This document shows positions 8,177 to 8,917 of a stretch of DNA of 10,356 nucleotides, in pieces. How positions within the stretch are numbered: position 1 is the stretch's first letter; each line of letters starts with the position of its first letter. The stretch is from Escherichia coli (GTDB lineage: Bacteria > Pseudomonadota > Gammaproteobacteria > Enterobacterales > Enterobacteriaceae): NCBI RefSeq assembly GCF_003334385.1, contig NZ_QOWN01000069.1; one strand, given 5' to 3'. Made by a program: the position numbers and the translations under genes. The notes beneath the pieces were generated by a model. It saw only the letters and a program-made list of their open reading frames with translations, was not told the DNA's origin and did no database searches.

Positions 8177-8917
8177 ATGCCTGTACCAAATCCTACAATG
8201 CCGGTGAAAGGTGCCGGGACCACCCTGTGGGTTTATAAGGGGAGCGGTGACCCTTATGCGAATCCGCTTTCAGACGTTGACTGGTCGCGTCTGGCTAAAG
8301 TTAAAGACCTGACGCCCGGCGAACTGACCGCTGAGTCCTATGACGACAGTTATCTCGATGATGAAGATGCGGACTGGACCGCGACCGGGCAGGGGCAGAA
8401 ATCCGCCGGAGATACCAGCTTCACGCTGGCGTGGATGCCCGGAGAGCAGGGGCAGCAGGCGCTGCTGGCGTGGTTTAATGAAGGTGATACCCGTGCCTAT
8501 AAAATCCGCTTCCCGAACGGCACGGTCGATGTGTTCCGTGGCTGGGTCAGCAGTATCGGTAAGGCGGTGACGGCGAAGGAAGTGATCACCCGTACGGTGA
8601 AGGTCACCAATGTGGGCCGTCCGTCAATGGCAGAAGATCGCAGTACGGTGACGGCGGCAACCGGTATGACTGTGACGCCTGCCAGCTCCTCGGTGGTGAA
8701 AGGGCAGAGCACCACGCTGACCGTGGCATTCCAGCCGGAGGGCGCAACTGACAAGAGCTTCCGTGCGGTGTCAGCGGATAAAACAAAAGCCACCGTGTCG
8801 GTCAGTGGTATGACCATCACCGTGAAAGGCGTTGCTGCAGGTAAGGTCAACATTCCGGTTGTATCCGGTAATGGTGAACTTGCTGCGGTTGCAGAAATCA
8901 CTGTCACCGACAGTTAA
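8177..8917 (+). CDS. V: Major tail tube protein gpV (246 aa) with C-terminal Ig-like (Big_2-type) domain
   Basis: ATG at 8177 with GAGGA SD (8167-8171) gives [44 protein letters not shown]..., the lambda gpV sequence. The C-terminal ~85 residues are T/V/S-rich beta-strand sequence typical of the gpV Ig-like domain. The ORF-track start at 8147 is within the U 3' end and is rejected. Confidence 0.93.

Follow-up and report, generated by a model that had tools for sequence, protein, structure and literature searches.

The tail tube of phage lambda is formed by the major tail protein gpV, whose residues 1-156 make up the tube and whose residues 157-246 constitute a Big_2 Ig-like domain, gpVC (PMC8718954). 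According to the account of Pell et al. 2010 given in PMC8718954, tails still form when gpVC is removed, but their biological activity is reduced 100-fold. In lambda, gpVC runs parallel to the axis of the tube, touching the beta1-beta2 loop of the subunit next to it, an arrangement that differs from those of T5 and YSD1 (PMC8718954). Cryo-EM has revealed three protrusions per ring, each composed of two gpVC domains contributed by neighboring subunits (PMC10721106), and cryo-EM also distinguishes three ways in which gpVC is arranged on the surface of the tube (PMC12617516). Cryo-EM maps resolve the gpVC density poorly, and an earlier model of the lambda tube contained no gpVC-gpVC interface (PMC8718954).

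The isolated C-terminal domain of lambda gpV has been solved by NMR (PDB 2L04), and the full-length protein is represented by 6P3E, 7T4F, and 8IYK; PDB 9MFE contains the gpV of Escherichia phage YDC107, a natural lambda-like allele. Pell et al. 2010 reportedly described conserved proximal and distal clusters on the surface of gpVC. A Big_2 domain is also found at the C-terminus of pb6, the tail tube protein of siphophage T5 (PDB 5NGJ), where it is likewise exposed on the tube, but in pb6 the domain projects orthogonally without tube contact, duplication of the tube domain makes the rings trimeric, and identity to the protein described here is only ~12%. The same Pfam family and beta-sandwich fold occur in a Paenibacillus Big_2-CBM56 protein (7QUZ) and in Leptospira LigA (8GYR), which are bacterial secreted or surface proteins rather than virion components. 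The Ig-like domain of the gpV described below has been thoroughly characterized and is a textbook annotation.

Gene V in a lambda-type structural module

The stretch of Escherichia coli DNA analyzed here (the window, 10,356 nucleotides) belongs to a lambda-like phage or prophage and makes up its left-arm structural module, from terminase gene A, the 5′ end of which is missing, as far as the beginning of the tape-measure gene H. From end to end it is collinear with positions 776-11134 of lambda (NC_001416); identity is 97.9%, and the alignment contains one indel, of 3 bp. The best phage record for the window is Escherichia phage 2H10, with 98.4% identity, and the highest identity found in complete E. 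coli genomes is 99.0%. Matches to at least 80% of the window occur in 2952 of the 5426 complete E. coli genomes. A record labeled "Campylobacter phage CJLB-4" (MW057783.1; host Campylobacter jejuni) matches the window at 97.9% over all 10.3 kb, which is the same figure as for lambda, and probably reflects lambda contamination or a labeling error.

Gene V (Table 1) is situated between U and G, as it is in lambda, and the surrounding genes follow the lambda-type order Z-U-V-G/T-H. The encoded protein, which at 246 aa has the same length as lambda gpV, matches full-length lambda gpV (6p3e) in a search of PDB sequences with an E value of 1.8e-155, and it matches phrog_41, "major tail protein," in PHROGs with an E value of 3.3e-125. 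At the DNA level, V is 96.1% identical to lambda V (8955-9695). The exact 246-aa sequence is encoded in 603 public contigs, where it is named "MULTISPECIES: phage tail protein [Enterobacteriaceae]."

An upstream in-frame ATG extends V through window positions 8147-8176 and gives a 256-aa ORF (8147-8917; 10 residues plus gpV) that overlaps the end of U. The same extension is present in lambda and accounts for the label "V;256" in J02459; the solved full-length lambda gpV chains contain 245-246 residues, compared with the 256 residues of the ORF starting at 8147. Downstream of V, the G/G-T programmed -1 frameshift site retains its slippery heptamer, GGGAAAG, intact at 9331-9337, and the T extension (9337-9771) shows no differences from lambda.

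Table 1. Gene V, the two domains of gpV, and the codons that differ in amino acid from lambda (positions are those of the window)
Feature	Position	Strand	Remarks
Gene V, major tail (tail tube) protein gpV	8177..8917	+	246 codons plus stop; from translation
N-terminal tube-forming domain, residues 1-156	8177..8644	+	Phage_TTP_12; limits from PMC8718954, PMC10721106
C-terminal Big_2 Ig-like domain (gpVC), residues 157-246	8645..8914	+	Pfam, 2L04, AlphaFold2, Foldseek
Codon 171, Ser here, Thr in lambda	8687..8689	+	within predicted strand 170-174
Codon 190, Ala here, Val in lambda	8744..8746	+	predicted loop between strands 178-186 and 195-197
Codon 217, Lys here, Asn in lambda	8825..8827	+	near end of predicted strand 213-218
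Codon 235, Leu here, Phe in lambda	8879..8881	+	immediately before last predicted strand 236-244
Codon 245, Asp here, Ala in lambda	8909..8911	+	penultimate residue, past last predicted strand

The C-terminal Big_2 domain of gpV

The two-domain layout of lambda gpV is retained. Using Pfam hmmscan, Phage_TTP_12 (PF16461) was matched to residues 18-152, covering model positions 1-135 of 135 (E 2.5e-70), and Big_2 (PF02368) to residues 161-239, with model positions 2-77 of 79 aligned (E 5.4e-19, 68.4 bits), the latter match being far beyond chance. The pairing of Phage_TTP_12 with Big_2 was found in 119 of the 120 homologs listed. A search of PDB sequences aligned 2L04, the isolated lambda domain, with residues 158-245 (E 7.1e-42, ~94% identity), and the last 90 residues of gpV alone also matched, in PHROGs, families of Ig domains from other structural proteins of phages.

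The original prediction had assigned the last ~85 residues of gpV to a Big_2 Ig-like domain, and this assignment is confirmed by the Pfam match, which lies within residues 160-246, by the ~94% identity to 2L04, and by the comparison of folds described below. The region flagged in that prediction, 8654-8917, is in frame with V from codon 160 to the stop codon at 8915-8917 and encodes residues 160-246, ending in EITVTDS; the 82-residue peptide cited with it is exact and corresponds to residues 165-246.

Some database proteins of 320-400 aa (P0016-P0020, P0027, and P0031-P0033) share 94-99% identity with gpV along part of their sequence but carry additional Pfam families, such as PF06894 and PF06141, or extra length. 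These are probably not real architectures but gene-call fusions with adjacent tail genes, produced where contigs are short or frameshifted.

An AlphaFold2 model of gpV was built on a 50-sequence alignment. The C-domain was modeled with a pLDDT of 86-96 (means of 10-residue blocks, residues 161-246) as eight beta strands, at residues 163-167, 170-174, 178-186, 195-197, 205-210, 213-218, 222-230, and 236-244. The quality of the C-domain model depends on the alignment, because AlphaFold run on the single sequence gave a pLDDT of 36. Residues 148-155, between the two domains, form a low-confidence stretch in the model, which is consistent with a flexible tether. Foldseek aligned the model with 2L04 with a TM-score of 0.83 (normalized to the target) and an rmsd of 2.9 Å over 90 columns, and with the Big_2 domains of 7quz with an rmsd of 1.4-1.6 Å over ~86 residues at 32-34% identity. 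The identity to 2L04, the model, and the Foldseek alignments together establish that the C-domain has the Ig-like beta-sandwich of the Big_2 family and the same fold as lambda gpVC.

Variation between V alleles

Gene V differs from lambda V at 29 of 741 nucleotides, comprising 24 synonymous and five nonsynonymous differences. Comparison of the C-domain with that of lambda, which the original prediction had proposed as a check, accounted for all five amino acid substitutions: T171S, V190A, N217K, F235L, and A245D. Residues 1-170, including the whole N-domain, are identical to lambda gpV, and identity over the full length is 98%. The natural lambda-like V genes of 2H10 and PhiR30_1 are closer to the window than lambda is, with 98.9% DNA identity. 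The gpV of YDC107 has Ala190 in common with the window but differs from it in the N-terminal part and by the deletion of one residue, and it resembles lambda in having Asn217, Phe235, and Ala245.

The substituted sites were placed in the context of the family by aligning the window gpV and lambda gpV with 61 database homologs of 240-253 aa. All five sites are polymorphic among the 63 aligned sequences. Site 171 is the most variable (25 Ala, 13 Ser, 12 Thr, 8 Gly, 3 Val, and 2 others). At site 190, 58 of the 63 sequences have Ala, and Lys is the majority residue at site 217 (33 Lys, 26 Asn, 4 Thr); the other two sites are 235 (44 Phe, 19 Leu) and 245, at which Ala is found in 27 of the 63 sequences, Asp in 19, and Glu in 10. 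The window therefore has the majority residue at sites 190 and 217, and it is laboratory lambda that represents the minority form there.

Relative to lambda, the N-domain (residues 1-156) has no nonsynonymous and 12 synonymous differences (dN 0, dS 0.117), and the linker and C-domain (residues 157-246) have five nonsynonymous and 12 synonymous differences (dN 0.026, dS 0.188), the dN/dS for residues 157-246 being ~0.14 by the Nei-Gojobori method. These values indicate that both domains are under purifying selection and that the C-domain is the less constrained of the two; positive selection on the C-domain was rejected, as its dN/dS is well below 1. Against lambda alone, the nonsynonymous excess in the C-domain is marginal (5/12 versus 0/12, Fisher p = 0.059), but the lower conservation of the C-domain is clear across the family, with a mean column entropy in the 63 sequences of 0.68 bits compared with 0.35 bits for the N-domain, a difference of about twofold. 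The gpV encoded in the window is thus a common natural allele maintained under purifying selection, with no sign of altered function. Among natural V alleles, of which E. coli genomes contain several thousand, amino acid variation is concentrated in the Ig-like domain that is exposed, with the tube core remaining fixed, and this pattern makes such alleles a ready panel with which to test the function of gpVC.

Gene V forms a discrete patch of divergence from lambda, with 29 differences in the 654 bases of window positions 8257-8910, flanked by only two differences on the left (7421-8256) and four on the right (8911-10356). Expressed by gene, the divergence of V from lambda is 3.9%, compared with 0-0.7% in the flanking genes U, G, T, and H. 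Judged from this distribution of differences, the patch resembles a gene-sized allele exchange by homologous recombination, of the kind typical of lambdoid mosaicism.

The role of gpVC and alternative readings

Taken jointly, the best explanation of these observations is almost certainly that the domain is the gpVC of a lambda-type gpV, that it is an accessory decoration of the tube surface, and that it belongs to a common allele with no sign of a changed function. The N-terminal domains of gpV polymerize into stacked hexameric rings that build the tube, and gpVC decorates this tube as an accessory without taking part in its formation. For the mechanism, we infer from the lambda literature that adjacent gpVC domains would pair with each other and contact the beta1-beta2 loop of the neighboring subunit, and this pairing and contact on the tube may stabilize the tail or condition it for productive infection, in which case the main effect of gpVC would be on the tail itself. 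The domain may have a second role, in which many weak contacts are made with carbohydrate on the cell surface. Given the 94% identity of its C-domain to that of lambda, the allele in the window would be expected to assemble tails without gpVC and to suffer a drop in infectivity of ~100-fold. The original prediction had described the domain as dispensable for assembly in lambda, which is correct insofar as tails form without gpVC but understates the 100-fold loss of activity reported in PMC8718954.

A different emphasis would make gpVC mainly an adhesin, with ~190 weak carbohydrate-binding Ig-like domains holding the phage loosely on LPS or surface glycans and speeding its search for LamB, and with substitutions in the domain tuning adsorption and host range. 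This reading draws on the hypothesis, put forward by Fraser et al. 2006 for phage Ig-like domains in general, of weak carbohydrate binding, which is quoted in PMC8718954 and PMC10721106. The weak surface interactions invoked in the original prediction therefore have a legitimate published origin but are unproven: carbohydrate binding "remains to be experimentally verified" in the words of the passage of PMC8718954 that quotes the hypothesis, and the lambda cryo-EM papers, in their accounts of gpVC, stress contacts on the tube surface, the domain lying along the tube and touching neighboring subunits in contrast to T5 and YSD1 (PMC8718954). The nearest nonphage structural neighbors of the domain, the Big_2 domain on a carbohydrate-binding module (7quz) and the Big_2 domains of the LigA adhesin, would fit an adhesive function. 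The domain is also surface-exposed and more variable than the tube core, but its dN/dS of ~0.14 gives no indication of diversifying selection, and all five substituted sites vary freely among alleles from the same host species. Although two of the five substitutions (N217K and A245D) alter charge, the two changes cancel out. A 2026 preprint on gut-phage Ig-like adhesins mentions neither lambda nor tail tube proteins. We consider it unlikely, on this evidence, that adhesion is the main function of gpVC, and we favor its action as a tube-surface accessory.

It is considerably less probable still that the five substitutions, including N217K and A245D, mark a distinct class of gpVC allele that was brought in by the V-sized recombination patch and that makes the kinetics of adsorption or the stability of the tail measurably different from those of laboratory lambda, through interactions with the envelope or between gpVC domains; we regard this reading as highly improbable. 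The original prediction had suggested that natural variants of the domain may alter adsorption behavior. For the variants found here such an effect is pure speculation and has no support, because the substitutions are ordinary standing polymorphism and show no sign of diversifying selection.

The presence of a second, hidden feature beside gpVC, either a structured RNA or an antisense ORF at 8497-8907 (- strand, 136 aa), can be practically dismissed. The reading frame of this ORF is uninterrupted in lambda as it is in the window, and no more than 5 of its 137 codon positions, counting the stop, differ between the two. The ORF and V have their wobble positions in register, however, so that changes synonymous in V are mostly synonymous on the antisense strand too and the conservation of the ORF is uninformative. 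The lambda record carries no annotation at the site, and an Rfam scan of the whole window at the gathering threshold matched no families. Another antisense ORF (8604-8786) differs from lambda at 12 of 61 positions, and both antisense ORFs were rejected as coding sequences.

Elsewhere in the window, a second block of divergence from lambda extends over positions 6001-7250 and takes in the 3′ end of E together with FI and FII. Divergence from lambda in this block is 4.1% for E, 7.6% for FI, and 4.0% for FII, and FI contains a 3-bp in-frame deletion relative to lambda positions 7430-7432, with the indel located at window position 6654.
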